This document shows, in pieces, positions 15,334 to 32,000 of a stretch of 32,000 bases of DNA. Source of the DNA: Schaalia odontolytica. Its GTDB lineage: Bacteria > Actinomycetota > Actinomycetes > Actinomycetales > Actinomycetaceae. Numbering within the stretch: the stretch's first letter is position 1; every line of letters starts with the position of its first letter. The position numbers and the translations under genes are program-made. The notes under the pieces were generated by a model. That model was not told the origin of the DNA. It was given only the letters and a program-made list of their open reading frames with translations, and did no database searches. The stretch covers positions 1,320,001-1,352,000 of the forward strand of contig NZ_CP040006.1 in NCBI RefSeq assembly GCF_005696695.1. The letters run 5' to 3'.

Positions 15334-15861
15334 TCAGGGTTCGCGCGTGTCTGTCAGGCGGATCATACGCCCGTCCCACCCGTCGCGCCAGGCGCGCGCG
15401 TACTCGAGGATCTGCGCGGGGTAGATTTCTCCATCGATCTGGGCGGCGGCCTCGTCGATGTCCCACCAGGCCTGGGTGTCGATGACGGAACGTTCCAGGT
15501 CAGTCCATCCATCCCGGCTCAGGGCGGTCGAGGGCGCCTGCGCGACGAAAAACCACTCGTCCTGCCTGGCGGTGACCGCCAGGAAGTCGAACTCGGCGGT
15601 CCGGTAGAGGACGGGGCCCACCAGGTCGTCAGGGGCCAGCTCGATACCGGTTTCTTCGAAGACCTCACGCACGGCTGCGGCGCGCGGGTCCTCGCCCTCT
15701 TCGATGCCGCCACCGATCGTGAACCACCAGAACCGCTCCGGTTGGTCCTCGTCGTGGCCCTTGGCCAAGAGGACCCGTCCACTGTCGTCAAAGAGGAGGA
15801 CGCGGGCGGCCTCCCGATGGGGATAGCCGTCCGCGTCCACAGGCCAGTCGAGTGCGCTCAT
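15334..15861 (-). CDS. NUDIX hydrolase
   Basis: Nudix box GGGIEEGEDPRAAAVREVFEETGI. ATG 15861 overlaps the TGA of the upstream PrsW-like gene (ATGA). The ORF-track extension to 15960 is rejected. Confidence 0.85.
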   Translation of the reverse strand: MSALDWPVDADGYPHREAARVLLFDDSGRVLLAKGHDEDQPERFWWFTIGGGIEEGEDPRAAAVREVFEETGIELAPDDLVGPVLYRTAEFDFLAVTARQDEWFFVAQAPSTALSRDGWTDLERSVIDTQAWWDIDEAAAQIDGEIYPAQILEYARAWRDGWDGRMIRLTDTREP

Positions 15862-16887: not shown

Positions 16888-18189
16888 TCAGGCGACGTGC
16901 GCACGACCCGCGACGGCGTTCGTGACATCCTTTTGCTGCTCCGCGATAGAGGTCAGTCGCAGGAATTCACGGCGCTTTTCAACGGCATCGGCCAGCATCT
17001 GACGATCGTTTTCGATGCGCGAGGGATCGGCGCCATGGCGAGCCATGAGGCGCTGGTCGAGGCCGAGGGAGGCCAGGTCGGACAAGAAGGCTCGCATGGC
17101 ACGCTTCGCATCCCGACCACCCTGGGCAGCCCACTTGAAGGCGGCTTTACGCGCGCGACGATCGGTCGCCATCGAGACTTCGCCGGGAAGGATCCATCCG
17201 GTGCGCACGTACGGGACGAGGCCATCGCGAATGTGGAGAGCCTCCCGACGCGCAGCTCGCAGCAGCAGAATCGACCAGAGGACGAACCCAGGAATACCCA
17301 CGACGACATACATGGCAATGAAGGCAAATCCAGATCCGGTCAATGCGGCGCTTCCATTCCACACGAAGTGAATGAGCATCGCAAAGAACCAGAAGACGAC
17401 GACGATAGCGGTCTTCAACCAGCCCCGCTTGAACTTGAGGAGGGCGAGCGCCAATCCGATGCCCGTCATCGAGGTTGCCATGACGTGTAGGAAGGGTCCC
17501 AGCAGGGCGCGAACAACGAATACCAAGACGAGAGTCTTTGTTCCTTGTCCTTCGGTGCGCAGGAAGTACAGGATGTCCTCGAAGAAAAGGAACCCGGCCG
17601 CCGAGAATCCCGCGTACACGACACCGTCGAGCACCGAGTTGATGGAGTTGCGGCGTACAACAACGATGATGAGAACGCCGATACCCTTGAGGGTCTCCTC
17701 AACGAGGGGCGCGATGAATGACGCGGCGAGTGCCTCCGCACGGTCGAAGTCACCGATTGTGGCGGCAATGTCCTCACCCAGTGCAGTATTCATGATCATC
17801 GCCGACAGGGTCGCCACGCCCCCGCCCCACAGAAACATCGCAAGCTTCGTCGTCCACGGTTCAGGCTCCCAGCGATCAATCCGCTGGAGGAAGCCGACGA
17901 CGATCACGAGGGCAACCAGGGACAGCAGCGTCGTCTTCACGAAGGACGTCACGCTCGAAGACTCGGGTGCCAGACCGAAGACGATGATGCCGATGGTCCC
18001 CAGCACGCCGATCGTCGTCATGACAACCTCGAACCAGGGGAAGGAGTGCGCGGCCTTGGGAGGCTGCCAGACGGGAGCGGCATCGTCGGGGGCCGGTGCT
18101 GAGACGCCATCGGTGGAGTCGATGGTGGCGCTGCTGATCTTGCTGAGGCGATAGTCCTCGCCGGGCCCTCCCCAGTGGGTCGCGTGCAT
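16888..18189 (-). CDS. PrsW-family protease-like membrane protein (paralog 2) with a ~130-aa cytoplasmic C-terminal extension
   Basis: Motifs VEETLKGIGVL, GFLFFEDILYF and HVMATSMTGIGLAL. I chose ATG 18189, 2 nt after the upstream stop, with GAGG about 10 nt upstream. The ORF-track start at 18255 would overlap the upstream gene by 65 nt. Confidence 0.8.
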   Translation of the reverse strand: MHATHWGGPGEDYRLSKISSATIDSTDGVSAPAPDDAAPVWQPPKAAHSFPWFEVVMTTIGVLGTIGIIVFGLAPESSSVTSFVKTTLLSLVALVIVVGFLQRIDRWEPEPWTTKLAMFLWGGGVATLSAMIMNTALGEDIAATIGDFDRAEALAASFIAPLVEETLKGIGVLIIVVVRRNSINSVLDGVVYAGFSAAGFLFFEDILYFLRTEGQGTKTLVLVFVVRALLGPFLHVMATSMTGIGLALALLKFKRGWLKTAIVVVFWFFAMLIHFVWNGSAALTGSGFAFIAMYVVVGIPGFVLWSILLLRAARREALHIRDGLVPYVRTGWILPGEVSMATDRRARKAAFKWAAQGGRDAKRAMRAFLSDLASLGLDQRLMARHGADPSRIENDRQMLADAVEKRREFLRLTSIAEQQKDVTNAVAGRAHVA

Positions 18190-18190
18190 A

Positions 18191-18805
18191 TCAGTAACCT
18201 CGTCCGCCCGTCTGCGTGTCATCGTCAAAGTCAATGGGCTCGGGAATCGGAGCATGCCCGGCCAGTCGCAACAATTTTACCATTCGTGCGGAACGCAGGG
18301 CGCGAACTCCCGCGACATCCACGTTGTGCACGTTGCGTGTGAGCTCGATGCGGTAGCACGTCGCATCCAACGCTTCCAAGCGCGCAGCGGCTTGGGGATC
18401 CGATACAATGCGCGCCCGTTCTTCAAGGGTGAGAGTCTCACGGATTGCGCGAGACAGGGCGGACGCACGCTCCAAACGCGCGGCGACCTCGACACGATCG
18501 CCCTGGCGTTGCGCCGCGGTTCGGCGGTCGAGGCCATCGGTGGTGAGCTGGTCTCCCCCGTCCTGAATGTAGGCGCGTGCGGCGTCGGCGAGGCCGGAGC
18601 TTTCCAGACCGGCGCTGCGGCTCAGAAGGTCTGCCTCGGAGGCCCGGCGCAGCAGGAGTCGCGAGAGAGAGTCTCGCGAAGCAAGGATGCGCTGATGGAG
18701 CCGGTCCAGGCGGCGCGCTCGCGTGATCGCGAATCCTGCGATAACGCCGAGCGCGATAACGGCGAATACGATAGCGACAAGCAGCCAGGGGGACAGCGAG
18801 ATCAT
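18191..18805 (-). CDS. single-pass membrane-anchored helical protein, weakly LemA-like, function unknown
   Basis: 204-aa ORF with an N-terminal TM helix (WLLVAIVFAVIALGVIAGFAI) followed by Arg/Leu/Ala-rich helices. The C-terminal YRIELTRNVHNVDVAGVRALRSARMVKLL loosely recalls the LemA R-x3-YN-x2-V segment. Its ATG overlaps the pimA TGA (ATGA). Confidence 0.7.
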   Translation of the reverse strand: MISLSPWLLVAIVFAVIALGVIAGFAITRARRLDRLHQRILASRDSLSRLLLRRASEADLLSRSAGLESSGLADAARAYIQDGGDQLTTDGLDRRTAAQRQGDRVEVAARLERASALSRAIRETLTLEERARIVSDPQAAARLEALDATCYRIELTRNVHNVDVAGVRALRSARMVKLLRLAGHAPIPEPIDFDDDTQTGGRGY

Positions 18806-19983
18806 GCGAGTTCCTCCCCTTCTTCGCCGCGGCCTCGGATCAGGTCACGTGCCCGACGCGTTCCCGATTCGGCGGGACTTCCCATGGCGATCGCCAGCTT
18901 GTAGACCTCGAAGACCTTATCCGCCACAACCTCCCAGTCGTACTGCGCCGATGATCGCGCTCCGGCTGCGGACAGTTCCTCGAGGCGGTCGCGGTCTGTC
19001 AGCAGGTCGATGAGTGTACGTGCGAGCGAGTCGCTGTTGCCCGTCTCGAAGAGCGCGCCAGCTCGCCCGTCCTCTAGCACCGCACGGAAGGCTGGGATAT
19101 CCGAGGCAACGACTGCTGTATGGGCCGCCATCGCCTCGACAAGGACGATACCGAAAGACTCGCCGCCCGTCTGCGGAGCGACGTAGACGCTGGCGCCCGC
19201 GAGCAAGGATTCCTTCTCCTCATCGCTGATTCCACCCAGGAAAGACACGGAATCACCAAAACGCTCGACGGCCTGGCGAATCTCCGGAGCGTCTCCTCGA
19301 CCGGCAATCAGGAAACGCGCACCCGGGAAACGCTCAAGGACACCAGCAATGGCACCGGCGAAAATGCTCAGGCCCTTACGGGGCTCATCGAGGCGGCCGA
19401 GGAATACGATGACCGGACGTTCGTCCGTCGCCACCCACTGTTCAAGGGGCTGCGCGGTGCGGAACGAGGCCGTTTCGACCCCGTTCGGAATGATGACGGC
19501 ATCGCCGCCGTGGTGCTCGATCAGCGTTCGGCGCGCCTCCTCGGACACCGCGATGCGCACTCCGATGCGTTCCATGTACAGGCGCATGGGCGCCGAGGCA
19601 ATCGCGCGCGAGACCGACCGACCGAGGGCCGCGTGGAATGTCCCCACGAGGGGGGCAGTCGAAAGCATCGCAGCTGCCATGGACACCGAGGGAACGACAG
19701 GCTCGTGGACGTGCACGACGTCAAAATCGTTGTCTGCCAGCCAACGGCGAGTACGCGCGAGTGCCTTCGGCTTCACGGAAATATTGGCCACCGATCCGTT
19801 AAAGGGGATCGACACGGACGAACCGGCGGACGTAATCCACTCAGGCAGGTCCTCCGAGGTCGACGGCGTCAGCACCTGAACGTCGTGTCCGCGGGACCGC
19901 AGCTTCAACGCGAGGTCGCGAATGTGGAAGCCCACTCCCCCGGGCACGTCCCAGGAGTACGGATTCACGATTCCAATCTTCAT
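18802..19983 (-). CDS. pimA: GDP-mannose-dependent phosphatidylinositol alpha-mannosyltransferase PimA (GT4)
   Basis: MKIGIVNPYSWDVPGGVGFHIRDLA..., FDVVHVHEP, GRLDEPRKG and GGESFGIVLVEAMAA..AVVASD closely parallel M. tuberculosis PimA (Rv2610c) from memory. The synteny also matches. Confidence 0.9.
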   Translation of the reverse strand: MKIGIVNPYSWDVPGGVGFHIRDLALKLRSRGHDVQVLTPSTSEDLPEWITSAGSSVSIPFNGSVANISVKPKALARTRRWLADNDFDVVHVHEPVVPSVSMAAAMLSTAPLVGTFHAALGRSVSRAIASAPMRLYMERIGVRIAVSEEARRTLIEHHGGDAVIIPNGVETASFRTAQPLEQWVATDERPVIVFLGRLDEPRKGLSIFAGAIAGVLERFPGARFLIAGRGDAPEIRQAVERFGDSVSFLGGISDEEKESLLAGASVYVAPQTGGESFGIVLVEAMAAHTAVVASDIPAFRAVLEDGRAGALFETGNSDSLARTLIDLLTDRDRLEELSAAGARSSAQYDWEVVADKVFEVYKLAIAMGSPAESGTRRARDLIRGRGEEGEELA

Positions 19984-20906
19984 CGATTCTTCCTCTCGTG
20001 CTCGGCCCTCGCGCGCGCCAGGCGCTCGGGGTCAAGATCCTCCACATACACGCGTTGCATCATGTGCCAGTCCTGCGCCTTGGTCGCCATCATGGCGGCA
20101 AATTCGTCCACCCACGCCTGCGTGAGGGCCTCGACGCGATTGAGGCCGGGGCGCTCCTGGCCATCCACGTTGATCGGTCCGACACAACGCACTCGGACAT
20201 CGGCCCCTGCGGGTGTCTCGTTCTCGTACGTGATGCAGGCTGCAAAGAGCGGACGCTCCAGCTTGGTCGCGAGCGCAGCGGGACCCGCGGCGACAAGTGC
20301 GCGCCGAGTCCCCAGGTCGACCTCAATGCCCGAACCCGAAATATCCCGGTCTGCAAGAAGCGGGACGATGACGCTACGGCCGCGCACGCGCTCGATGAGG
20401 GTAGAAAAGACCGACTCGCCCTTCGCGACGCCGATGATCTCCATGCCGAGGCCTTCGCGCAACGACACGAAACGTTCAAACAGCGCGGGAGGCTCCACCT
20501 TTTCAGCCACGGTCACGATGTCACGACCGTGTGCGCACGCCCACGCGCCAGCACGATCCCAGCTGCCGGAGTGTCCGAGAGCGAGGACGACCGGGCCATC
20601 TTCGCTGGCCGCAGCCAGGGCCTCGAAGCCCTCGAAGGAGACGCCCTCGAGCAACGGCTCGCCACGACGCGAGCCGAGCATTAGCTGCTCAGCGTAGTTG
20701 CGGATGTGCGACCGGACCGCGTCACGCACCTCGTGGGCGGACGGCTCGTTTCCGGTTAAACGCGCCATGTTGGCGCGCAGCCGGTCGATCATGGCTCCCC
20801 CGCGCCTGGCCGCAATCGATGCACCAGTGTCCGCCATGCGCATGACGAGGCGCAGCGGCAAACGGGGGGCGATCGAAAAAGCGAGCGACAGGGGCGAAAA
20901 ACTCAC
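19980..20906 (-). CDS. patA: lipid A biosynthesis (HtrB)-family acyltransferase, PIM acyltransferase PatA-like
   Basis: 308 aa from GTG 20906, which overlaps the PI synthase TGA (GTGA). LALGHSGSWD fits the family's H-x4-D active-site pattern. Its position between pgsA and pimA equals that of Rv2611c. Its stop overlaps the pimA ATG (ATGA). Confidence 0.8.
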   Translation of the reverse strand: MSFSPLSLAFSIAPRLPLRLVMRMADTGASIAARRGGAMIDRLRANMARLTGNEPSAHEVRDAVRSHIRNYAEQLMLGSRRGEPLLEGVSFEGFEALAAASEDGPVVLALGHSGSWDRAGAWACAHGRDIVTVAEKVEPPALFERFVSLREGLGMEIIGVAKGESVFSTLIERVRGRSVIVPLLADRDISGSGIEVDLGTRRALVAAGPAALATKLERPLFAACITYENETPAGADVRVRCVGPINVDGQERPGLNRVEALTQAWVDEFAAMMATKAQDWHMMQRVYVEDLDPERLARARAEHERKNR

Positions 20907-21529
20907 GGCGTTCCTTCGTCGATGTTGCGGGCAGTGAACCAGATGCGCTGGCAGACGGTGACGAAGGAGGCAAACGCCACCCAGGTCAGGCCGGCCGCAA
21001 ACACCCACTCGGGCAGACCGAGGCTCATGAGGATCGCCGTGCCCATGCCGATGATGAGGCGGTCGGTGCGCTCGGCAATACCCAGCTTGGCAACGACGCC
21101 GACGGATTCGGCGCGGGCGCGCGCGTAGGGCACGGCGGCAGCACCGACAATCGAGCAGATGCCGGCAATGATTGCCCATGTACGCACGAACGAGTCGTCC
21201 ATCTGGAAGACCGCGTAGGCGGTGAGGGAGCCGAACACGGCGCCATCACCCAGGCGGTCAAGCGTCGAATCCAGGAAGGCGCCAAAACGCGTGCCGCCCG
21301 TCGTCATGCGCGCGAGCGTGCCGTCAACAGAGTCGCCGAACATGACGACGGCCAGGGCGATGCCGCCCTGCCAAATCCATCCCTGAGGAATGCAGATAAC
21401 CGCGATCGCGACCGTCGCAACGGTGCCCGCGATCGTCACCATATTCGGGGTGACGCCCACGCGTGCGAGAACGCGAGCGAGAGGCGTAAAGATCGCCTTC
21501 GTAATGGAACGTCCGTGGTTTCCGAGCAT
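20903..21529 (-). CDS. pgsA: CDP-alcohol phosphatidyltransferase, phosphatidylinositol phosphate synthase type (PgsA1-like)
   Basis: 208 aa from ATG 21529. It carries the CDP-alcohol motif DSVDGTLAR....G.FLDSTLDRLGD and is a multi-TM protein. The start overlaps the HIT gene TAA by 1 nt. The ORF-track extension is rejected. Confidence 0.88.
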   Translation of the reverse strand: MLGNHGRSITKAIFTPLARVLARVGVTPNMVTIAGTVATVAIAVICIPQGWIWQGGIALAVVMFGDSVDGTLARMTTGGTRFGAFLDSTLDRLGDGAVFGSLTAYAVFQMDDSFVRTWAIIAGICSIVGAAAVPYARARAESVGVVAKLGIAERTDRLIIGMGTAILMSLGLPEWVFAAGLTWVAFASFVTVCQRIWFTARNIDEGTP

Positions 21530-22131
21530 TAGTCCTCCTTCGGCCAGGCGGCGGCGAGCCGGGCACGAGCGTCCTCCAGGAGCTCGGGCACTGCCTTCGT
21601 CTGCGCGATAATCGGCAGGAAGTTCGCGTCGCCCAGCCAGCGCGGAACGATGTGCTGGTGCAGGTGGGCGGCGATGCCGGCACCGGCTACCTCGCCCTGG
21701 TTCATGCCCAAGTTGAAGCCCGCCGGAGCGGCAACGGCGCGGGTAACACGCATGGCGGTCGCCGTCAGGTTGCCCAGCTCGATGCGTTCCTCGTCGGTGA
21801 GCTCCGTGTAGTCGGAGACGTGACGATACGGGCACACGAGCAGGTGCCCGGAATTGTAGGGGAACAGGTTCATGAGCACGAAGCACGTGTCGCCGCGGTA
21901 GACGATCAGTCCCGCCTCGTCATCCTTACCGGGCGCCGTGCAGAACGGGCACCCCACGTCCGAGGCGTCGACGGGCTTGCCTTCGCCGCGGATATAGGCC
22001 ATCCGGTAAGGGGTCCAGAAACGACCGAAGCCGTCCGGGACGCCCGCCAGGGAGCGGGCGTCCTCGGTCGGCAACTGGCCGTTCGGGGTACCGATCGAAT
22101 CGGAACCGGCGTCACGGCTCATGACTCTCAC
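21529..22131 (-). CDS. HIT family protein (Ap4A phosphorylase / GalT-like, Rv2613c-type)
   Basis: Histidine triad [12 protein letters not shown] and CPFC upstream. GTG 22131 overlaps the thrS TGA (GTGA); ATG 22122 is an alternative start. Confidence 0.85.
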
Positions 22132-24161
22132 GCCTCGTCGAGGCCGTCGATCTGGTCCGCGTTGTTGCGCTGCTCGATGTGCGAGACGATCAGCTCAACC
22201 GCGCGATCAACGGCGACGCCGTTGTGCTGCGAGCCGTCACGCAGACGGAAGGACACGGCCCCGGCCTCGACGTCCTCGCCGCCGGCGATGAGCGTGAACG
22301 GGATCTTGTCCTTGGAGGCGTTGCGAATCTTCTTGCCGAAGCGGTCGTCTGACAGGTCGGTCTCGACGCGCACGCCGCGCTCACGCAGCTTCGCGGCGAC
22401 GTCCTTGACGTAGCCGTCAAAGGCCTCGGCGACGGGGATGAGACGGACCTGAACGGGCGAGAGCCACGCGGGGAATGCGCCCGCGTAGTGCTCGGTGAGC
22501 ACACCGATGAAGCGCTCGACGGAGCCCAGCTTGGCGGAGTGGATCATGACGGGGCGCTGACGGGAACCGTCGGCCGCCGTGTACTCCAGGTCGAAGCGGT
22601 CGGGCTGGTTGAAGTCGTACTGGATCGTCGACATCTGCCAGGTACGACCGATCGCGTCCTTAACCTGCACGGAGACCTTGGGGCCGTAGAAGGCAGCGCC
22701 ACCCGGATCCGGAACCAGGTCGAGGCCGGTCGCGGCGCAGGCATCCTCGAGCGCCTTCGTGGCGGCCGCCCAGTCCTCATCCGAGCCGATGAACTTGTCC
22801 TTCTTCTTGCCGTCCTCGTCGCGCGTGGACAGCTCCAGGTAGAAGTCCTTGAGGCCGAAAGCGGAGAGAATCGACAGGAAGAACTCGATCTGCGTGCGGA
22901 TCTCCTCCGAGGCCTGCTCAGGCGTGCAGTAGGTGTGCGAGTCGTCCTGCGTGAAGCCGCGCATGCGGGTCAGGCCGTGGACGACGCCGCTCTTCTCGTA
23001 GCGGTAGTCGTGACCCAGCTCGTAGAAGCGCAGGGGCAGCTCGCGGTAGGAGCGGCCGCGCGAGCGGAAGATCAGGTTGTGCATCGGGCAGTTCATGGCC
23101 TTGAGGTAGTACTCCTGGCCTGCCTTGGTCACGTTGCCGTCCTCGTCGCGCTCTTCATCGACGAGCATGGGCGGGAACATCGTGTCCGCGTAGTAGGGCA
23201 GGTGACCCGACGTGTGGAAGAGTCCACCCTTGGAGATCTCGGGGGTGTGCACGAAGTCGAAGCCGGCCTTCTTGTGACGGTCAGTCACGTAGGACTCGAT
23301 CTCGTGACGCAGGATGCCGCCCTTGGGATGGAAGACAACGAGGCCGGGGCCGATCTCCTCGGGGAAGGAGTACAGGTCCAGCTCGGCGCCGAGGCGACGG
23401 TGGTCGCGGCGCTCGGCCTCCTTGATGCGCTCCTGGTAGGCGACGAGGTCTTCCTTGGAGGCCCAGGCGGTGCCGTAGATGCGCTGGAGCTGATCGTTGG
23501 ACTGATCGCCCTTCCAGTAGGCGGCCGAGGCCTTAGTCAGCGCGAAGCCGTTACCGATGAGCTTGGTGGAGGGCAGGTGCGGACCGCGGCACAGGTCCTT
23601 CCACGCGACCGAGCCGTCGCGGCGCACGTTGTCGTACATGGTGAGCGTGCCGCCGCCGACCTCGACGGAAGCACCCTCGGCGCCCTTACCCTTCGTGGTG
23701 ACGAGTTCGAGCTTGTAGGGCTGCTCAGCCAGCTCGACGACAGCTTCCTCCTCGGAGAACTCGCGGCGCACGAAGCGCTGGCCTTCCTTGACGATGCGCT
23801 TCATGCGCTTCTCGAGGTCGCGCAGCAGCTCGGGGGTCACCGCGTCGATGTTGCCGAAGTCGTAGTAGAAACCGTCGGTGATGAAGGGCCCGATACCCAG
23901 GTTCACGTCGGGGAACACATCCTGGACGGCCTGCGCGAGCACGTGCGTGGCGCTGTGGCGCAGAATGTTCAGGCCGTCCTCGCTGGCCAGGGTGATGGCC
24001 TCGACGGTCGTTCCTGCTTCAAAAGGCGTCTCGAGGTCACGCGGGGTGCCGTCAACCTTGATGGCGACGACGTCGCGCGACTTCTCGAACCACGTTGTGC
24101 CCGTGGTCCCCGCCGGTACGGTCTGTTCGTGTCCGTCAATGACGAGCGAGATATCGGGCAC
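22128..24161 (-). CDS. thrS: threonine--tRNA ligase
   Basis: 677 aa with a TGS domain N-terminus, the editing domain motif [10 protein letters not shown], class II core motifs ([36 protein letters not shown]) and an anticodon-binding C-terminus. GTG start with AGGAG 5 nt upstream. Confidence 0.97.
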
Positions 24162-24233: not shown

Positions 24234-25259
24234 TCAGGAGCGGGCGCGCCAGTCCTTCACGGCCTTCGCGGCGCTCAGGGCACGGTAGGTGGCCTTCTTG
24301 ATGGGCATGTCCCAGCCGCCGGGCACGTCTGTGAAATGCGTGGCGAAGGCGCTCTTGTACTTGCCGACGCTGTACAGATCGGGGCAACGCGGCGAGTGCG
24401 CGCCCATGAGGTCGAATTCGCGCACGCCATCGCGGGCGAGGAATTCGGCCGCCAGGAAGTCCAGGACCGGGGGCTGACGCAGGCGACGGCCGGCCTCGGT
24501 GGAGGCACCGTACTCGGCCTGCGCCCGGATTCCTTCGACGAGGCAGAAGTCCCAGCACAGGATGTTGCCGTCGGCGTCACGCATCGAGAAGATGCGCGCG
24601 TGCTTCGGGCCCAACGTCTTGAGCAGGCTGAGGTAGTACTCCTTGGGGTGAGGGCGGAAGCCGTCACGCTTAGCGGTCTCTTCCATGACGGCGTAGTACT
24701 CGTCGATGACGGCATCGACGTTGGCGGTGTCCTCGTGGAAGGTCACGCCCTCGGCCTTGCCCTTCTTCAGGCCGGAGCGGATCGAGCGCTTACCGGCCTT
24801 GGGCATGGCGGCGAGGATCGCTTCCTCGGTCTTGCCAGACGTGTCGATGACGACGGTGCGGTCGTAGGAGATCGTCTGCAGCGGCATGCACAGGTCGGGG
24901 TGCTGGTAGATGGCGTGCAGGCGCACGAAGGCGACGGTCTTATCCTTTGCCTTAATCTCGCGCACAAGGTCCGCTCGCAGAGCAGCTTCGCGCTCCGGGG
25001 AGGCTTCCTTCACCCACGCGGGTCCCCACTTCGCCCACAGGTAATGGACGCCACGCACCGAATACTTATAGAGGGTGATGAACGCGATCTTGGAATCATC
25101 CTCACACCAGGCGTAACGTCCCCACACTCCGTGGCCCTGGGATTCTTCAAACGCTTCCCACACGCACGTCTGTTCGATGGGCAGGGAGCGGTCCTGGAAG
25201 CCAGAGACCGCGGCGATCTTGTCTTCCTGAGAGATGGGCACGAGTGCGGTTGTCGTCAT
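24234..25259 (-). CDS. FemAB-family aminoacyl-tRNA-dependent peptidoglycan interpeptide-bridge transferase (FemX-like)
   Basis: 341 aa, collinear with Weissella FemX as I remember it. Matches: W..F....G...WG / GP.W block, PKAGKRSIRSGLKKG (cf. PSKTKSKIKR), AKRDGFRPHPKEYYLSLL (cf. ERHGITHRPIEYFQRM), FDLMGA (cf. YDLGGI) and KYKSAF. Confidence 0.82.
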   Translation of the reverse strand: MTTTALVPISQEDKIAAVSGFQDRSLPIEQTCVWEAFEESQGHGVWGRYAWCEDDSKIAFITLYKYSVRGVHYLWAKWGPAWVKEASPEREAALRADLVREIKAKDKTVAFVRLHAIYQHPDLCMPLQTISYDRTVVIDTSGKTEEAILAAMPKAGKRSIRSGLKKGKAEGVTFHEDTANVDAVIDEYYAVMEETAKRDGFRPHPKEYYLSLLKTLGPKHARIFSMRDADGNILCWDFCLVEGIRAQAEYGASTEAGRRLRQPPVLDFLAAEFLARDGVREFDLMGAHSPRCPDLYSVGKYKSAFATHFTDVPGGWDMPIKKATYRALSAAKAVKDWRARS

Positions 25260-25362
25260 GGTGTCCTCGTTAGTCGGAATTATCGGTCGCGTAGGGGGTC
25301 AGTCTATCAGGGCCTCCTCCCCCACCGACGAGGCCGGGGCCGGGCAGGGAAGGGGCGTGACG

Positions 25363-26640
25363 TCAGTAGGACGTCTCGGTGGGTTCCGGATAGTAGCGGG
25401 CAAACTTACGCCTATGGTTCTGCTTCTGGAGCCACACGGTCAGGTTACGGCGCAGGTCCTTCTCCGTCGGATTGAGAAGCAGATCAAAACGCCGGCCCTC
25501 ACGGATGATGCGCTTGACGCGCGCGCGCAGATCCTCATCGGTGATGTAGTGCAGCAGCAGGGAGTCCGGCACGAGGGTGTAGAGAATCTCGTCGGTCGCT
25601 TGGGTCTGCTCGCAGGCCTTGCCGTCAATAAGGTCCTCGACCATCGGGATCATCGGGTTCGCACCGGCGGCGGCCATGTACCAGTTGTTGCGGCCGATGC
25701 GCGGATTCACCTCGAAGAAGAGCGCTCGCCCGTCCCGGGGATCGATCTTCACGTCGAAGTTCGCGAAACCGCGGTAGCCGTTCTCGGTCAGTAGAGCGCA
25801 GGCATCGCGCCACAGCGTCGGGAAGTCCTCGGTGATCATGGCGACGGGGTTTCCGATCATCGTGGGCGCGTGGTCTTCGAGGAGGACACGCGCCGACCCG
25901 ATCAGGGTCACCTCTCCGCGCGAGTCCACATACGCCGTGATCGAGCGCATCGCGGTGTTATCGCCAGGAATCAACTCCTGCACCAGGAAGGTATCGCGGA
26001 AGCCCGCTGCCTTCAGGGTCCCCCACAGCTGAGTGAGTTCCTCAGCCGTGTCGATGAACCAGATCTTGCGCTTGCCCTCGAACTCGAGCACGTCATAGGG
26101 CTCGCCCTTCGCGGACTTAGCAACCACCGGGAAACTAAAGGGAATCTCGGGAGCGGCCCAGGCCTCGTCCTCCGCTCCGGAGAAATCGACCTCGACCGTA
26201 CCCGGCGTGGCAATGCCGGCACGCTCGCACGCACGAGCAAACTCCGCCTTGTCGGTGAGTCGATCCATGACCTCCTCGGTGGGGAACGGCAGCGCGTAGT
26301 GGCGCGAGAGCGTCTCCATGTTCCGAGCAACGAACGCCGAGAAAATGTCGTGGTTGGCCATCAGGATGAGCTTCTTATCCGAATGCTCACCCGCAATGGT
26401 CATAAGGACGTCCAGGAGCTGTGCGTCACTCGCATGAGCGCTCACGTGGCGGACATCAAAAAAGTGCGAACGCGTGATCGACTCGGTCGGCTGCGATCCC
26501 ACGCAGATGCACCGACAACCGAACGCTTCGTTGAAACAACGCCCAATTCCGTATACTCCGAAGTCTCCTCCGATAATGACGGGCAGGATATCTTCGCGGG
26601 GCATCAGCGGTCGCGTCTGAGTCAGATAGTCGATCGTCAT
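25363..26640 (-). CDS. ATP-grasp carboxylate-amine ligase (D-aspartate-ligase-like class; substrate unknown)
   Basis: 425 aa. It has a pre-ATP-grasp N-terminal domain (PVIIGGDFGVYGIGRCF), DK.EF...C...GI.TP, FPVVAKSAKG, LVQELIPGD and FANFDVKIDPRDGRALFFEVNPRIGR (the E-x-N Mg-binding motif). Confidence 0.82.
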   Translation of the reverse strand: MTIDYLTQTRPLMPREDILPVIIGGDFGVYGIGRCFNEAFGCRCICVGSQPTESITRSHFFDVRHVSAHASDAQLLDVLMTIAGEHSDKKLILMANHDIFSAFVARNMETLSRHYALPFPTEEVMDRLTDKAEFARACERAGIATPGTVEVDFSGAEDEAWAAPEIPFSFPVVAKSAKGEPYDVLEFEGKRKIWFIDTAEELTQLWGTLKAAGFRDTFLVQELIPGDNTAMRSITAYVDSRGEVTLIGSARVLLEDHAPTMIGNPVAMITEDFPTLWRDACALLTENGYRGFANFDVKIDPRDGRALFFEVNPRIGRNNWYMAAAGANPMIPMVEDLIDGKACEQTQATDEILYTLVPDSLLLHYITDEDLRARVKRIIREGRRFDLLLNPTEKDLRRNLTVWLQKQNHRRKFARYYPEPTETSY

Positions 26641-26711
26641 GCCACAAGCCTAGCGCCTGGTAGGATACAGAACGTTCCCTGAGACCTCTCTCACCAACAC
26701 GGAAGTACATC

Positions 26712-27563
26712 ATGAGCACGCCCTATTCTCCCGAGAATCAGCAGCCTTACCAGCCCCAGCAGGGTGGATACCCACAGCAGGGCGGATACCAGCAAGGTGG
26801 CTTCGGGCAGCAGCCCACCCAGCAGATGCCCGCCATGGGCGGCTACGGGCAGCAGCCCACCCAGCAGATGCCCGTAGCGGGCGGCTACGGCCAGTCTCAG
26901 GGCTACGGTCAGCAGGCCCAACAGGGCTACGGTCAGCAGGCCCAACAGGGCTACTACGCTCAGGGCCAGTTCCAGGGAGCCCCGGGCGGCGATCAGCCGG
27001 CAAAAAAGAAGACGGGCCTCATCATCGGCATCATCGCGGCCGTCGTGGTCGTGCTCATTGCCGCCGGCGTCGCCATCTGGTGGTTCATGTCCGGCGACGA
27101 CTCTTCCGACGCTGATGCTGCCCAGAGTGCCCCGAGCGCCGCAGCCCCGTCCGCAGGCGCAAACCCGTCGCAGCCTCCCGTGGGCACCAACCCCTCGCAG
27201 CCTCCCGTGGGCACCAACCCCTCGCAGCCTCCCGTCGGCACCAACCCCTCGCAGCCTCCCGCGGGTACGTCCCCCTCTAAAGGCACGGGTCCTGGCGCCG
27301 GCTCTGATCCTGACATGGAGAAGCAGGCCATCGCCGAGTGCACGAAGGAAATCAACGACGACTACACGAACGCAAACGTCTCGGACACGAAGCTGGAACT
27401 GAAGGAAAGCTACGGTGAGACTAAGTGGTGGGACTACACCGGTACCGTCACCGGAACAAGCACCATCACGAACAAGCCTGTCACGACCCGGTTCACGTGC
27501 TCCGTGTTCTACTTCTCGAGCACGAAGGAATACTCCGCTGTCGTCATCCCCGAAACCTACTGA
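26712..27563 (+). CDS. Q/G/Y-rich single-pass membrane protein with 2-Cys ectodomain, paralog 1 (uncharacterised)
   Basis: 283 aa with GGAAG 7 nt upstream of the ATG. Architecture: QGY-rich tail, PAKKKTG + TM (LIIGIIAAVVVVLIAAGVAIWWF), (NPSQPPVGT)x4 spacer, then a C-terminal module (...AECTKEIN...YTGTVTGTS...RFTCSVFY...). Paralogous to the next two genes. Confidence 0.8.
   Translation: MSTPYSPENQQPYQPQQGGYPQQGGYQQGGFGQQPTQQMPAMGGYGQQPTQQMPVAGGYGQSQGYGQQAQQGYGQQAQQGYYAQGQFQGAPGGDQPAKKKTGLIIGIIAAVVVVLIAAGVAIWWFMSGDDSSDADAAQSAPSAAAPSAGANPSQPPVGTNPSQPPVGTNPSQPPVGTNPSQPPAGTSPSKGTGPGAGSDPDMEKQAIAECTKEINDDYTNANVSDTKLELKESYGETKWWDYTGTVTGTSTITNKPVTTRFTCSVFYFSSTKEYSAVVIPETY
26805..26888 (+). repeat. 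2 x 42-bp tandem duplication inside paralog 1 (GQQPTQQMP(AM/VA)GGY)
   Basis: Units 26805-26846 and 26847-26888 differ only in 4 consecutive nt (gcca vs gtag). Confidence 0.9.
26901..26948 (+). repeat. 2 x 24-bp perfect tandem duplication inside paralog 1 (GYGQQAQQ)
   Basis: ggctacggtcagcaggcccaacag occurs twice back to back. Confidence 0.95.
27162..27269 (+). repeat. 4 x 27-bp in-frame tandem repeat inside paralog 1 (NPSQPPVGT)
   Basis: Units start at 27162, 27189, 27216 and 27243. Units 2 and 3 differ at 1 nt; units 1 and 4 differ by a few nt. Confidence 0.95.
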
Positions 27564-27601
27564 CACGCGCTGACAGCTTCTGATAGACCGAGGGAGTCCC
27601 C

Positions 27602-28312
27602 ATGTCCAGCCCCTTCAACCCCAACCAGCAGCCGATGCCCGGCAACGGTCAGTACCCGACCGGCCAGCAGTTTGGTGCTAGTTACGGCCAGCAGCCCGGC
27701 CAGCAGATGACTGGCGCGGGCGGCTACGGTCAGCCTCAGGGCTTCGGGCAGCAGCCTCAGCAGGGCTACTACCCCCAGGGGCAGTTCCAGGGCGCTCCCT
27801 ATGGTGGAGCGCCGGAAAAGAAAAAGACGGGCCTCATCGTCGGCATCATCGCAGCAGTCCTGGTCGTCGCTATCATCGCCGGCATCGCGATCTGGGCACT
27901 CAACAAGGACGACTCTGACTCGGTCGCTGATTCACCCACGATGCCTGGGGTTCCTTCTCAGGGCTCCGGCCCTACGGCGGGCACCAACCCGATGCAGCCT
28001 CCCGTAGGTACCAACCCGTCGCAGGGGACCGCTCCGGGGAATGGGAACGGCGGTCAAGGTGACATGCAGCAGCGGGTTGCCTCGATGTGCAAAGAGGAAA
28101 TCAATAAGAAGTTTTCAAACGCCAACATCTCGAATGAGAACTTTACGCAGCCGGAGGTCCTCCCCAACGGCCAGAAGCAAATCTACACCGGGATCGTCAG
28201 CGGAACCGAAACCTCAACGAACAAGAGCGGACGTTGGTCGTTCACATGTAACGGCTACTACATTAAAGACATGAACGACTACACCGGCTGGATAACCTAC
28301 AAAGAAGCCTAA
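27602..28312 (+). CDS. Q/G/Y-rich single-pass membrane protein with 2-Cys ectodomain, paralog 2 (uncharacterised)
   Basis: 236 aa with GAGGGAG 5 nt upstream of the ATG. Same architecture: MSSPFNPNQQ..., PEKKKTG + TM, GTNPMQPPVGTNPSQG spacer, then the ...SMCKEEIN...YTGIVSGTE...WSFTCNGYY... module. Confidence 0.8.
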   Translation: MSSPFNPNQQPMPGNGQYPTGQQFGASYGQQPGQQMTGAGGYGQPQGFGQQPQQGYYPQGQFQGAPYGGAPEKKKTGLIVGIIAAVLVVAIIAGIAIWALNKDDSDSVADSPTMPGVPSQGSGPTAGTNPMQPPVGTNPSQGTAPGNGNGGQGDMQQRVASMCKEEINKKFSNANISNENFTQPEVLPNGQKQIYTGIVSGTETSTNKSGRWSFTCNGYYIKDMNDYTGWITYKEA

Positions 28313-28399
28313 GCCGTCACGTTCACGAGCTACCTTCTACGCACGTTGCGTTCACCTTGGAGACCGGCTCAACCTATCGAACCACAAACGGGAGCACCA

Positions 28400-29152
28400 A
28401 TGTCGAACCCCTACAACCCCAACCAGCAGTCTGCTGGCGGAAACGGCCAGTATCCGGCCGGGCAGCAGTACACCCAGCAGATGCCCACCGCAGGCGGATA
28501 TCAGCAGCAGGGGTACCCACAGCAGCAGGGATACGCCCAGCAGCCTCAGCAGGGCTACTACCAGCAGGGCCAGTTCCCGGGCGCCCCGTACGGTGGAGCG
28601 CCGGAGAAGAAGTCAAAGACCGGGCTGATCATCGGCATCATTGCAGCAGTGGTGGTCGTGATCCTAGTCGCTGGCGTCGCGATCTGGGCGCTGACCAAGG
28701 ACGATTCCTCCACCGACAAGGCATCGGCCTCGCCGAGCGCTCCGACCAGCGCAGCGCCCACGTCCGCTCCTTCCGCGGAGCCCAGCCCGTCGGCTCCCAT
28801 GACTCCCGCCCCTGCACCGACCCAGTCCACGCCGCCCGTCAACACAAAGCCCAGCCCGGCACCGACCCAGGGTACGGGTTCTTCCGGGAGCGTCAGCTCC
28901 GATGAGGAATACGGCGTCAAGTCTGAATGCAAGTCCGCACTATCGCAGACGGTCCAGCAGGGCAAGCTTGAGAACTGGACAGTCGAGCGCGACGGCGTGG
29001 ATTCGAGCGGACGTCCTCAGTACCTATCGAAGGGCCAGTTCAACGGCACTCTTCTCACGGGCAAGAGCGGCACCTTCGACTTCACATGCACAGTCGTCTA
29101 CCACCAGGAGAATGGCTTGTACGAGGCGTGGGCTTCTATCGACGCCTACTAA
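28400..29152 (+). CDS. Q/G/Y-rich single-pass membrane protein with 2-Cys ectodomain, paralog 3 (uncharacterised)
   Basis: 250 aa from ATG 28400 (GGGAG 6 nt upstream), starting MSNPYNPNQQ like paralogs 1 and 2. PEKKSKTG + TM, S/A/P/T spacer, then the ...SECKSALS...GQFNGTLLTGKSGTFDFTCTVVY... module. The 18-codon ORF-track extension is rejected. Confidence 0.8.
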   Translation: MSNPYNPNQQSAGGNGQYPAGQQYTQQMPTAGGYQQQGYPQQQGYAQQPQQGYYQQGQFPGAPYGGAPEKKSKTGLIIGIIAAVVVVILVAGVAIWALTKDDSSTDKASASPSAPTSAAPTSAPSAEPSPSAPMTPAPAPTQSTPPVNTKPSPAPTQGTGSSGSVSSDEEYGVKSECKSALSQTVQQGKLENWTVERDGVDSSGRPQYLSKGQFNGTLLTGKSGTFDFTCTVVYHQENGLYEAWASIDAY

Positions 29153-29173: not shown

Positions 29174-30940
29174 ATGATCATCCACCCCGAGCTGCTTCCT
29201 GGCGAACTCTACGCAGCGCAGCCCTGGTGGAAGAACGCCGTGCTGTACCAGGTCTATCCCCGTTCGTTCCAGGATACGAACGGGGATGGACTCGGAGACC
29301 TTGCAGGGATTATCCGCCGCCTCGACTACCTCGCTGAGCTGGGTGTCGATATCGTGTGGATATCCCCGATCTACCGCTCCCCTCAGGCGGATAACGGCTA
29401 CGACATCTCGGACTACCGCGACGTCGATCCGCTGTTCGGAGATCTCGAGACTTTTGATGCCCTCGTTGCACGTGCTCACGACCTGGGTATGCGCATCGTC
29501 ATGGACCTCGTTGTCAACCACACGTCAATCGAGCACCCCTGGTTCGTTGAGTCAGCGTCGAGCGTCGACTCAGAGCGTCGAGACTGGTACTACTGGCGGG
29601 ATCCACGCCCTGGCTTCGAGCCTGGTGCTCCCGGTGCTGAGCCGACGAACTGGGAGTCGTTTTTCGGCGGGCCGGCGTGGGAGTACGACGCGTCTACCGG
29701 CCAGTACTACCTTCACCTTTTCGCACGCGAGCAGCCCGATCTGAACTGGGAGAACCCGCAGGTTCGTGACGCCGTCTACGACATGATGAACTGGTGGCTT
29801 GACCGGGGTGTTGATGGTTTCCGCGTCGACGCGATCGACGTCATTTCGAAGCTACCGGGCCTGCCTGATGGAGGCGCCCCGCGCCCGCCGTTTGGGGTCG
29901 GGCACGAGTGCTTCGCGGACGGTCCTCGTCTCCACGAATTCCTGCAGGAGATGCACGAACGGACGTTCGCTCACCATCCGGGGTCGTTTACGGTGGGCGA
30001 GGCCTCGAACGCATCCCCCGAGACAGCACTGCTGTTTTGCGATCCCGAGCGCCGCGAGTTCAACATGCTCATCCAGTTCGAGCATGTCAACCTCGGCCTC
30101 GAGAACGGCAAGTTTTCGCCCCGCCAGCTGGCGCCCGGGGAGCTGGCGGATGTTCTCACTCGCTGGCAGGACACGCTCGGGACGCGCGGATGGAACGCGC
30201 TGTACCTGGAGAACCACGACCAGCCGCGCTCGGTGTCCCGTTTCGGGGATCCATCGCTCTACTGGTACGAATCGGCAACCGCACTGGCGACCGCCTATTT
30301 CCTCCAGCGCGGAACCCCCTTCATCTATCAGGGCCAAGAGATCGGCATGCTCGGCGGTGATTTCACGACCGCAGCCGATTTCCGTGACGTCGAATCCGTG
30401 TCGTACATGGAGTGTCTGGGGATCGATAAGGTCCCCGAGGGACTCGCCGCGATGTCGCGAGACAACGGCCGGACCCCGATGCAGTGGGACTCCTCCCCCG
30501 CTGCCGGCTTCACCTCGAGCGAGCCATGGATCGATGTTCCGCCGTCCGCCGCTGCCATCAACGTTGCGGCACAGATCGAGGATGCAGGATCGGTCCTGTC
30601 GTATTACAAGGCACTTATCGAAGCTCGTCACCGCGTTCCCGCGCTGACGCAGGGCTCATTTGAGCGTATCGACGTGAGTTCACCGGCGCTCTTCGTCTAT
30701 CGTCGGCAGATGGCGGGCAGCGAGGTTCTCGTGATGGTCAATCTGTCCGGGCAACGCCACGCTCCCCTGTTCTCCCGACAGGACGAGGCCGTGGCTTCGT
30801 TGCCGTGGCGCCTCTACTTGGGCAACACGGAAGCATCACAGACGACGACCGATGAGACCGGCAATCACCCGGGCAGCGAACCCACTGTTGCCACACCATT
30901 GAAGCCGTGGGAGGCTCGCGTGTATCTCCTCGCCGGATAG
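29174..30940 (+). CDS. GH13 alpha-glucosidase / oligo-1,6-glucosidase-type enzyme (cytoplasmic; no signal peptide)
   Basis: 588 aa with WWKNAVLYQVYPRSFQDTNGDGLGDL and GH13 regions I-IV: DLVVNH, GVDGFRVDAID, FTVGEA, YLENHDQPR. It starts 21 nt after paralog 3. No clear SD. Confidence 0.93.
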   Translation: MIIHPELLPGELYAAQPWWKNAVLYQVYPRSFQDTNGDGLGDLAGIIRRLDYLAELGVDIVWISPIYRSPQADNGYDISDYRDVDPLFGDLETFDALVARAHDLGMRIVMDLVVNHTSIEHPWFVESASSVDSERRDWYYWRDPRPGFEPGAPGAEPTNWESFFGGPAWEYDASTGQYYLHLFAREQPDLNWENPQVRDAVYDMMNWWLDRGVDGFRVDAIDVISKLPGLPDGGAPRPPFGVGHECFADGPRLHEFLQEMHERTFAHHPGSFTVGEASNASPETALLFCDPERREFNMLIQFEHVNLGLENGKFSPRQLAPGELADVLTRWQDTLGTRGWNALYLENHDQPRSVSRFGDPSLYWYESATALATAYFLQRGTPFIYQGQEIGMLGGDFTTAADFRDVESVSYMECLGIDKVPEGLAAMSRDNGRTPMQWDSSPAAGFTSSEPWIDVPPSAAAINVAAQIEDAGSVLSYYKALIEARHRVPALTQGSFERIDVSSPALFVYRRQMAGSEVLVMVNLSGQRHAPLFSRQDEAVASLPWRLYLGNTEASQTTTDETGNHPGSEPTVATPLKPWEARVYLLAG

Positions 30941-31189: not shown

Positions 31190-32000
31190 TCAGCGCTGAC
31201 GACGCTTGACTGCGACGAGCGATCCACCCGCAAGGGCCACGATTCCGGCCAGGACGCCGATGTTCGCAGCATCAGCACCGGTCTTCGCCAGGCGCGGAGC
31301 CGGAGGCGTCGAAGGCGTCGGGGTCGGCTCCGGCGTCGGGGACTCCGAAGGCGTGGGGGTGGGCTTCGGAGACTCCGAGGGGGTCGGAGTGGGCTCCGGG
31401 GTCGGCGTCGGAGTGGGCTCCGGGGTCGGAGTGGGCTCCGGGGTCGGCGTCGGGGTCGGCGTCGGCGTGGGCTCCGGGGTCGGCGTCGGGGTCGGCGTCG
31501 GAGTGGGCTCCGGGGTCGGCGTCGGGGTCGGCGTCGGAGTGGGTTCCGGGGTCGGCGTCGGGGTCGGCGTCGGCGTGGGCTCCGGGGTCGGCGTCGGGGT
31601 CGGCGTCGGAGTGGGTTCCGGGGTCGGCGTCGGGGTCGGCGTCGGAGTGGGCTTAGGCGTAGGGACCAGCTTGTTGTTCAGGTTCAGCGCAAAGAGCTGA
31701 TCCTCGCTGAGCTTGAAGGTCGCCTCGCGGTTGTTGGCCTTGAGGGTGACGCCCTGCGCGGTATCGAACACGCGGCTCTCGGCCTCGTTCCAGGTCACGC
31801 CATCGGCTGCAGGGAGGTCACCCTCGGAGACGGTCACCTCGGTGCCCAGCGGGAGGGTACCCGGGTAGCTGTAGCGCTTACCGGCCTTGACGGTCGCCTG
31901 GTAGGTCTTGTTGACCGACGGATCGGCGTCGTTCTTCAGCGTGATGTTGAGGGTGTACTCGAGGTCCTTCGCGTTGTCGGGGAGCTCGCCGTCGACCTTC
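31190..32000 (-). CDS. LPXTG-type (LAKTG) sortase-anchored cell-wall surface protein, C-terminal part (gene continues beyond the right edge)
   Basis: The C-terminus ...[35 protein letters not shown] has the motif (31277-31291), a hydrophobic helix and a basic tail. The frame stays open upstream of the ORF-track GTG. My translation of 31838-32000 gives [54 protein letters not shown], a beta-rich Ig-like domain. Confidence 0.85.
31391..31648 (-). repeat. in-frame PT-rich tandem repeat: 6 x 36 bp ([12 protein letters not shown]) plus shorter 24- and 18-bp units
   Basis: 36-bp units start at 31433, 31469, 31505, 31541, 31577 and 31613 on the plus strand, differing at only 1-2 positions. The wider P/T/E/S stalk spans about 31295-31660. 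Confidence 0.95.

Follow-up and report, generated by a model that had tools for sequence, protein, structure and literature searches.

A low-complexity cytoplasmic tail rich in Pro, Gln, Gly, and Tyr, a single transmembrane helix, and a small exported domain make up a layout that recurs in several protein families of the phylum Actinobacteria, such as those with the DUF4333 and DUF4352 domains and the Rv0361 family. The same layout is found in three consecutive genes, designated here p1, p2, and p3 (jointly, the trio), in a 32,000-nucleotide (nt) stretch of the chromosome of the oral bacterium Schaalia odontolytica (contig NZ_CP040006.1, positions 1,320,001 to 1,352,000), hereafter referred to as the window. 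The p2 protein is encoded, residue for residue, in record LLVT01000003.1 of the assembly GCA_001462375.1; the host strain of the epibiont TM7x, Actinomyces (now Schaalia) odontolytica subsp. actinosynbacter XH001, has its draft genome under LLVT00000000 (PMC4742689). The analysis described below identifies the trio as a new sequence family on an architecture that is common in Actinobacteria, and it reveals a hypervariable locus with a varying number of gene copies in a genetically tractable model host. Both this hypervariability, which is the added value of the present work, and the predicted fold of the exported domain (referred to here as the head) are absent from the earlier note, which was made from the sequence of the window alone. 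Tentatively, the trio proteins may be viewed as variable, wall-spanning surface proteins.

Beyond the layout, no sequence match connects the trio with these families. The earlier note had put forward DUF4333 as the nearest idea for the head, and this suggestion has to be dropped: DUF4333 (PF14230) gave no match with the full-length proteins at E values of up to 1, and none of 16 family heads matched DUF4333, PepSY, cystatin, or any shared family at E values of up to 10. DUF4352, the domain of the Mycobacterium smegmatis phage-resistance protein Mpr (PMC9262609, PMC12596739), has an Ig-like fold, whereas the head is predicted to consist of a helix and a four-stranded sheet. The Rv0361 model (NF051431) scored 18 to 21.5 bits against a cutoff of 37 bits, and the matching profile positions (2 to 42 of 140) covered the transmembrane helix only.

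Some other systems resemble parts of the trio proteins. RsgI-type anti-sigma factors and PASTA-kinase sensors also combine a transmembrane helix with a Pro/Thr-rich linker and an exposed globular module, and the NTF2 domain of RsgI9 is among the weak fold matches to the head. However, the trio tail consists entirely of low-complexity sequence and lacks any folded signaling domain in the cytoplasm (RsgI_N or a kinase). Eukaryotic FUS-like (prion-like) domains and CYSTM tails are likewise uncharged and rich in Q, G, Y, and P, with [QG]Y[GQ] repeats; unlike them, the trio is bacterial, membrane anchored, and devoid of a Cys-rich transmembrane module. Among viral proteins, the best fold matches to the head in the BFVD database were the “membrane protein” of Gordonia phage Finkle and an uncharacterized protein of Corynebacterium phage Juicebox, both of a similar size (query-based template modeling [TM] score, TMq, of 0.54 to 0.66; E value of ∼0.01), and they were not significant. 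A phage origin of the trio was considered and dropped, given that a tblastn search of 50,697 phage records returned no homolog; nor was there any match in PHROGs.

Sequence features and predicted structure

The three proteins align end to end and consist of the same four parts, a tail, a Lys cluster followed by a transmembrane helix, a linker (or stalk), and the head (Table 1), so that the four-part architecture of three same-strand genes described in the earlier note agrees with both the open reading frames (ORFs) and the alignment. The paralogs are only 21 to 31% identical in pairwise comparisons and are kept side by side. Since BLASTP comparisons of the heads alone gave E values of 1e-16 for p1-p2, 1e-6 for p2-p3, and 4e-4 for p1-p3, their paralogy appears to be beyond chance. 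For p3, the longest ORF starts from the TTG codon at position 28346 and encodes 268 amino acids (aa). The ATG codon at position 28400 is preceded, 8 nt upstream, by GGGAG and yields an N terminus that fits the MS.P(Y/F).P pattern common to all homologs; for both these reasons, it is preferred here as the start.

The N-terminal tails (76 to 103 aa) contain 23 to 30% Q, 18 to 23% G, 11 to 14% P, and 8 to 12% Y, these four residues accounting for 67 to 73% of the total. They carry at most five charged residues: three K/R, all in the KKK cluster beside the membrane, and one or two D/E. Such an uncharged composition of the Q/N/G/Y/S-rich type, combined with predicted disorder, is that of a prion-like segment, as the earlier note had it. 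Indeed, in the AlphaFold2 (AF2) model of the full-length p3, residues 1 to 72 have predicted local distance difference test (pLDDT) values below 50 and no secondary structure; these are followed by the transmembrane helix (residues 74 to 99) and a disordered linker (residues 100 to 161). The transmembrane cores have a mean Kyte-Doolittle value of 3.2 and are flanked by KKK N-terminally and by an acidic D/S-rich stretch C-terminally. This charge distribution bears out the predicted type II (N-in/C-out) topology, by which the tail would be cytoplasmic and the head extracytoplasmic. This topology and the four-part architecture are much more secure than the full chain of steps proposed below for the function of these proteins. 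The linkers comprise 50 to 72 residues, mostly Pro, Ser, Thr, and Ala, and partly consist of tandem repeats. No sortase LPXTG-type C terminus was found: the C terminus of each protein belongs to the folded head (...PETY, ...YKEA, and ...IDAY, respectively), and the internal transmembrane segment is their sole hydrophobic segment.

Through in-frame repeats, the lengths of both tails and stalks vary between strains, so that p1 proteins range from 266 to 317 aa. Across the family, the tails span about 22 to ∼130 residues. The lower end is represented by the fourth family member of Schaalia sp. strain ORNL0103 (locus L005, positions 8867 to 9499 of that locus) and by protein P0126, in which the tail has only ∼22 residues (MSTPFNPNQQPMPGNGPYPTGQPAKKK...) and the transmembrane helix, stalk, and head are normal. 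Because such a natural paralog exists, a long tail does not appear to be obligatory. The same paralog is a natural “tail-less” variant, useful for probing the role of the tail. The extreme N terminus, MS.P(Y/F).P..QP, is kept in all paralogs and species, with M1 and P4 invariant and S2, P7, and P11 nearly so, and the corresponding stretch of p1 (window positions 26712 to 26813) is alignable at the DNA level where the remaining gene is not. A second motif, QQ(P/Y)(T/G)QQM(P/T), recurs in the tails. Either motif could be a short linear motif or reflect a constraint on translation initiation.

The two identically placed Cys residues of the ∼85-aa head reported in the earlier note were found in all three proteins, in positions 210 and 263 of p1, 163 and 216 of p2, and 177 and 230 of p3, i.e., with a spacing of 53 residues in each case. 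Two other features noted there are only partly shared. The terminal aromatic residue is present in p1 and p3, which end in Y, and missing in p2, which ends in ...KEA; the Y-x-G-x-(V/F)-x-GT stretch has the form S-K-G-Q-F-N-G-T in p3, which lacks the leading Y. Across the 16-sequence alignment, only the G-x-x-x-G motif and the second Cys are invariant, while the first Cys is found in 15 of the 16 aligned heads and in all 20 full-length sequences. Modeling of the p1 head with AF2 from this alignment (pLDDT, 87.5; predicted TM score, 0.72) yielded a helix (residues 7 to 24) followed by four long antiparallel strands, and the head of p3 (pLDDT, ∼90) had the same topology. In these models, the first Cys is in the middle of the helix and the second one is in the middle of strand 3, making a disulfide staple between helix and sheet plausible. 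A conserved Cys pair in a predicted extracytoplasmic domain, here on the acidic, non-Lys side of the transmembrane helix, is also what characterizes substrates of the thiol-disulfide oxidoreductase MdbA.

The best Foldseek matches to the head in the Protein Data Bank (PDB) were cystatin-like and NTF2-like proteins (the squash aspartic-protease inhibitor SQAPI [2kxg], Affimers/Adhirons, latexin, the NTF2 domain of G3BP, and SnoaL-like proteins), with TM scores of 0.45 to 0.58 and E values of ≥0.02; no match in PDB or BFVD had an E value below 1e-3. These folds have a single helix cradled by a curved antiparallel sheet, an arrangement that the head, as predicted, may resemble. However, the head is only 85 residues long, lacks inhibitor motifs, and is not expected to form a ligand pocket, and its helix-to-strand Cys pair is specific to the trio family. 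The NTF2/SnoaL-like cone (∼120 to 130 aa, with three helices, a five- or six-stranded sheet, and a pocket) was not matched by the 85-aa head with its one helix and four strands: no hits were obtained with hidden Markov models (HMMs), and target-based TM scores (TMt) did not exceed 0.38. The head is therefore best described as a small predicted helix-on-sheet module of a very common shape, one that says little about function.

The placement of the C-terminal module outside characterized families was upheld by all sequence searches. The three isolated heads had no match in Pfam or NCBIfam, and the head profile found nothing among PDB sequences. With full-length proteins, these libraries returned only subthreshold matches over the low-complexity or transmembrane parts (GltJ, FliL, Rv0361, CYSTM, and the PASTA-kinase juxtamembrane region). 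Thus, FliL scored 13 to 29 bits against cutoffs of 131 to 197, through the N-terminal Lys-plus-transmembrane part of the models only, and CYSTM scored 15 to 17 bits against a cutoff of 25.2, over the Q/G/Y-rich tail and the start of a transmembrane helix that has no Cys residues. The only PepSY-related matches were PepSY_TM and PepSY_MTB, subthreshold and over the transmembrane helix, with none in the head. PADLOC returned no defense system, only PD-T4-6 at 14 to 20 bits over the low-complexity and transmembrane stretch.

Phyletic distribution and gene order

A HMMER profile built from the three heads and compared with 1.84 billion representative proteins produced 25 matches, of which ∼19 clusters were real, consisting of full-length four-part proteins or their fragments. 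Six huge Ig/PKD-repeat proteins (with Big_2, Big_13, and PKD domains) were rejected as relatives; their scores were sums of weak matches of a Y-T-G-x-V-T-G-T-like β-strand over 4 to 10 repeats. The real clusters carried the names “hypothetical protein” of Schaalia odontolytica, S. dentiphila, or Schaalia sp.; one cluster was labeled Rothia, probably a mislabel. Similarly, a genome scan found the loci only in assemblies of Schaalia, Pauljensenia, and “Actinomyces,” plus two mislabeled records, Sanguibacter keddieii 250_SKED (NZ_JVOJ01000045.1; locus L006) and Xylanimonas cellulosilytica 352_XCEL (NZ_JVKM01000059.1; locus L010). In both of these, PimA, threonyl-tRNA synthetase (ThrRS), FemAB, and ATP-grasp proteins are 96 to 99% identical to those of strain XH001 and are encoded in the same order, so that the assemblies are evidently mislabeled Schaalia. 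A Mycolicibacterium locus (L018) was spurious, having been brought in by the Q-rich patterns of the full-length query. The family thus appears to be restricted to Schaalia (Pauljensenia in GTDB).

At every locus with enough flanking sequence, the ATP-grasp gene is followed by one to four family genes and then by a gene for a glycoside hydrolase of family GH13; on short contigs (L024, for example), the flanks are missing. Wherever a locus reaches the GH13 gene, it lies 10 to 30 nt downstream of the last family member. Three copies are found in XH001 and most other strains, two in L012, L013, L025, and L026, one in L017 and L021/L022, and four in L005. In the metagenomic locus L021, the tblastn match of the ATP-grasp gene is split in two, with small ORFs only, so that this locus may be disrupted or misassembled. 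The p3-like gene is the most conserved paralog and is present at every locus that has its GH13-proximal end on the contig, whereas the p1 and p2 slots are the most variable ones. The earlier note had proposed to check whether synteny with the FemAB/ATP-grasp or GH13 genes is conserved. The synteny is kept at every locus showing both sides of the slot; it says little about function, because the family is confined to one narrow clade with inherited gene order.

Variability of the locus

Among 14 loci, the heads fall into at least 12 classes with identities below 80%. They are 62 to 92% identical to those of XH001 in strains whose ThrRS, FemAB, and ATP-grasp proteins are 95 to 99% identical. Nonsynonymous divergence (dN) of the heads is 0.04 to 0.27, compared with 0.002 to 0.026 in these three proteins, and its ratio to synonymous divergence (dN/dS) is 0.1 to 0.35, compared with 0.01 to 0.08. 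For the trio as a whole, dN is ∼5 to 40 times that of the FemAB-like and ATP-grasp neighbors. A strongly divergent example is the metagenomic contig L025, both family proteins of which cluster with NCBI entries labeled S. odontolytica, including one from a complete genome. Its flanks are 92 to 96% identical to those of XH001 in amino acid sequence and 86% in nucleotide sequence, whereas its heads are only 36% and 48% identical; blastn similarity ends ∼100 nt into p1, with none beyond window position 26813. The intergenic region and approximately the first 50 to 100 nt of p1 remain alignable (81 to 86% nucleotide identity over the whole hit) where the remaining locus is unrecognizable.

The class of a head does not follow the divergence of the flanks. 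The flanks of L010 are among the closest to XH001 (only those of L005 are closer), yet this locus carries a different p2 class. L011 is a mosaic allele, in which the tail, transmembrane helix, and linker of p1 are 91 to 94% identical to those of XH001 and the head is 65% identical. In class-switched p2 heads, synonymous divergence (dS) reaches 1.0 to 1.3, compared with ∼0.3 in the flanks, a difference that fits old alleles exchanged by recombination. Per-site entropy over 120 p2 variants was bimodal, reflecting two allele groups, and was not informative about regions. Pooled ratios of nonsynonymous to synonymous polymorphism (pN/pS) were 0.14 to 0.62 over the four regions (∼0.1 to 0.6), and dN/dS was mostly 0.1 to 0.4. 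No region exceeds 1, and the trio genes are real and under purifying selection.

Possible functions of the trio

In a transposon sequencing (Tn-seq) study of XH001, the lists of essential genes include thrS (APY09_08370), APY09_08375 (“GNAT family acetyltransferase,” 1 insertion), and APY09_08380 (“carboxylate--amine ligase,” 0 insertions) (PMC12369343). These are the ThrRS gene and the FemAB/GNAT-like and ATP-grasp genes that flank the trio; the latter two (positions 24234 to 26640, minus strand), located beside thrS, are 95 to 99% conserved across the clade and fit a pair of tRNA-dependent and ATP-dependent enzymes of peptidoglycan cross-bridge formation. The locus tags of the trio, APY09_08385 to APY09_08395, as inferred from position and not read from the annotation, are in none of the essential-gene files, in which APY09_08380 is followed by APY09_08455 (PMC12369343). 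Because these tags are absent from the essential lists, the trio, so identified by position, is non-essential in vitro. No mention of the trio genes or their inferred tags was found in the papers searched.

These data do not support a housekeeping role of the trio in peptidoglycan synthesis. Dispensability in vitro, copies that are gained and lost, replacement of alleles specifically in the head, and variation in stalk length form a pattern seen in exposed surface molecules, and for this reason surface exposure is the preferred reading, which we regard, for the whole chain of steps, as possible but somewhat short of probable. The heads would be exported, and the extended linker, ∼15 to 22 nm long at 0.3 nm per residue, would carry each of them into or through the thick cell wall, the thickness of which in Gram-positive bacteria is, by our estimate, comparable. 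The two Cys residues would form a disulfide through the actinobacterial MdbA/VKOR pathway; oxidative folding of exported proteins by MdbA has been established in Actinobacteria, including Actinomyces and Corynebacterium (PMC9974433, PMC5478893). The S/T-rich stalk might be O-mannosylated, given that Pmt, a protein O-mannosyltransferase, is present in this clade: its C-terminal domain was found in 13 of 13 TM7x-susceptible strains and in none of 10 resistant ones (PMC7784981). Through the tail, the proteins would be able to form clusters or to bind partners in the cytoplasm. Finally, duplication, loss, and replacement of alleles would diversify the heads, driven by binders such as phages, epibionts, salivary antibodies, or proteases.

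Several observations speak against such exposed, diversifying proteins. Pooled by region, dN/dS never exceeds 1, and gene-wide positive selection was not found, so that the fast evolution of the trio could reflect relaxed constraint instead of an arms race. Nor is the trio alone in being deeply divergent: the dS of the GH13 gene is also raised, to 0.37 to 0.53, above that of the left flank. This gene (86 to 91% amino acid identity; dN/dS of 0.16 to 0.19) evolves much faster than the left-flank genes, and part of the contrast between the trio and its flank may reflect the unusually slow evolution of the latter. The length of the stalk may also be insufficient for the head to emerge from the wall.

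Alternatively, the trio could be an “orphan” family that is confined to its lineage, weakly constrained, and without a particular binding partner, its variability being due to drift and repeat slippage only. Besides the low dN/dS values, this agrees with the dispensability of the genes, the loss of copies in some genomes, and the length changes driven by repeats. It accounts less well for the confidently predicted head fold, the invariant G-x-x-x-G motif and second Cys with the nearly invariant first one, the conserved MS.P(Y/F).P start, the retention of p3, and the maintenance of three such dissimilar paralogs side by side; we consider it unlikely, while still deserving serious attention. A partnership with the FemAB-like and ATP-grasp cross-bridge enzymes, in which the trio would serve as an envelope scaffold or sensor with tails recruiting cytoplasmic wall-synthesis proteins, comes closest to the envelope link favored in the earlier note. 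The tails would share their side of the membrane with the enzymes, the divergent intergenic region is just 71 bp long and conserved together with the 5' end of p1, and the genes are adjacent at every locus that includes the left flank. However, in a single narrow clade such synteny is explained by descent, and the contrasts between the essential, conserved neighbors and the unlisted trio, with its one to four copies and far higher dN, argue against a tight partnership. Add to this the natural paralog with a ∼22-aa tail and the lack of significant matches to divisome or elongasome families (FliL, Rv0361, and SCO2584 being subthreshold and limited to transmembrane or low-complexity parts), and the partnership becomes improbable.

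Two further explanations start from the head fold and from the downstream gene, respectively. The presence of SQAPI (TM score of 0.58), phytocystatin, phytocystatin-derived Affimers/Adhirons, and latexin among the best PDB folds, coupled with the rapid evolution of the heads, would fit membrane-tethered cystatin-like protease inhibitors that shield the cell surface from proteases of the host or of bacteria and whose rate of change is driven by an arms race with proteases. We find this very hard to credit, as NTF2/SnoaL-like folds score equally well, none of the Foldseek matches is below an E value of 1e-3, no cystatin or other inhibitor HMM matched any of the 16 members at E values of up to 10, and the cystatin motifs QxVxG (first hairpin) and PW (second hairpin) are absent from the alignment. 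Alternatively, the trio and the GH13 gene could form an operon for carbohydrate sensing or uptake tied to α-glucan metabolism. Their 21-nt gap has no terminator consensus in a promoter/terminator consensus scan, the GH13 gene follows the last family member at every locus reaching it, including the most divergent one, where the gap is 25 nt, and glycogen genes (GlgC, GT4, and CBM48-isoamylase) are nearby. Still, the head bears no signature of a carbohydrate-binding module or solute-binding protein, a single-pass protein cannot transport, the GH13 protein has no signal peptide apparent by eye and is probably cytoplasmic, and adjacency inside one clade is weak evidence, all of which makes such an operon highly doubtful.

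If the trio proteins are variable surface proteins, their heads or stalk glycans might serve as docking molecules that set which Schaalia strains a phage or a Saccharibacteria epibiont attaches to. This we regard as a long shot. If true, strain-level differences in host range in the XH001/TM7x system would follow from the number of copies and the allele classes present at this locus. A head-specific TM7x receptor was rejected as unlikely: TM7x also grows on ATCC 17982, which we take to be the type strain NCTC 9935, while the heads labeled S. odontolytica sensu stricto are only 36 to 48% identical to those of XH001. The study of phage LC001 implicates the wall-polysaccharide cluster APY09_00485 to APY09_00540 and not the trio locus (PMC11032452), and the only host docking candidates for TM7x and LC001 discussed in two published studies are cell wall polysaccharide genes and transporters (PMC7784981, PMC11032452).

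XH001 is the model host for both TM7x, the first cultivated Saccharibacterium, and LC001. In this host, the trio is a concrete candidate for study, being non-essential, predicted to be surface directed, sharply different among near-identical strains, and deletable with existing genetic tools. Since cytoplasmic tails rich in Q, G, Y, and P occur widely among the single-pass proteins of Actinobacteria, a deletable trio with tails of variable length also provides a handy entry point. If the heads bind no partner, the trio is simply a lineage-specific family.

Genomic context

The distances from p1 to the divergent ATP-grasp gene and from p3 to the GH13 gene are those given in the earlier note, and its assignments of the neighboring genes agree with Pfam (Table 1). 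A consensus scan of the intergenic region upstream of p1 found no sigma-70 consensus.

TABLE 1 Coordinates of the trio genes, their parts and repeats, and the adjacent genes in the window
Feature	Position	Strand	Description
p1	26712..27563	+	ORF, 283 aa; inferred locus tag APY09_08385
p1 parts			Tail, aa 1-96; KKK + transmembrane helix, aa 97-126; linker, aa 127-198; head, aa 199-283 (nt 27306-27560)
p1 tail in-frame tandem repeats	26799..26954	+	42-nt unit x2.3 (GGYGQQPTQQMPxx); 24-nt unit x2.4 (QGYGQQAQ)
p1 stalk in-frame repeat	27162..27265	+	27-nt unit x3.9 (NPSQPPVGT)
p2	27602..28312	+	ORF, 236 aa; GAGGGAG upstream
p2 parts			Tail, aa 1-71; KKK + transmembrane helix, aa 72-101; linker, aa 102-151; head, aa 152-236 (nt 28055-28309)
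p3	28400..29152	+	ORF, 250 aa from ATG; adjoins GH13 gene
p3 parts			Tail, aa 1-68; KKSK + transmembrane helix, aa 69-99; linker, aa 100-165; head, aa 166-250 (nt 28895-29149)
p3 tail in-frame repeat	28502..28544	+	18-nt unit x2.4 (QQQGYP)
Divergent intergenic region, ATP-grasp gene to p1	26641..26711		71 bp
GH13 α-glucosidase-type gene	29174..30940	+	588 aa; starts 21 nt after p3; Pfam Alpha-amylase
ATP-grasp “carboxylate--amine ligase” gene, APY09_08380	25363..26640	-	Pfam CPSase_L_D2 ATP-grasp fold; divergent from p1
FemAB/GNAT-like gene, APY09_08375	24234..25259	-	Pfam FemAB/Acetyltransf_6

The window as a whole is ordinary core chromosome, with genes for PdxS, YebC, GlnE, GlnA, an SPFH protein, GT4/GlgC, two PrsW paralogs, and the thrS-HIT-pgsA-acyltransferase-pimA operon; Rfam and tRNA scans of the window gave no hits. 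The last of these (positions 18802 to 24161, minus strand) is a conserved actinobacterial operon that encodes ThrRS, a HIT protein, a CDP-alcohol phosphatidyltransferase of the pgsA type, a lipid A-type acyltransferase, and a GT4 glycosyltransferase of the pimA type, a composition that fits the synthesis of phosphatidylinositol mannosides. After this operon comes a 204-aa ORF (positions 18191 to 18805) that has no Pfam match. Just upstream of the pimA operon, there are two adjacent paralogous genes for PrsW-family intramembrane proteases (positions 15858 to 16706 and 16888 to 18255, minus strand).

The α-glucan genes around the trio comprise, in addition to the GH13 gene, those for a GT4 glycogen-synthase-like protein and a GlgC-type ADP-glucose pyrophosphorylase (positions 12008 to 14638), with a CBM48-isoamylase gene further downstream (positions 20065 to 20711 of locus L001). 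At the right end of the window, positions 31190 to 32000 (minus strand) encode the C-terminal part of a sortase-type surface protein, with an LAKTG motif, a hydrophobic stretch, and an RRQR tail; the gene runs off the window end. The motif is preceded by a long (TPTPTPEP)n repeat, and the full gene, which encodes 562 to 640 aa among strains, carries DUF5979. A second DUF5979/Big_8 protein is encoded just past this LAKTG-type surface protein gene.

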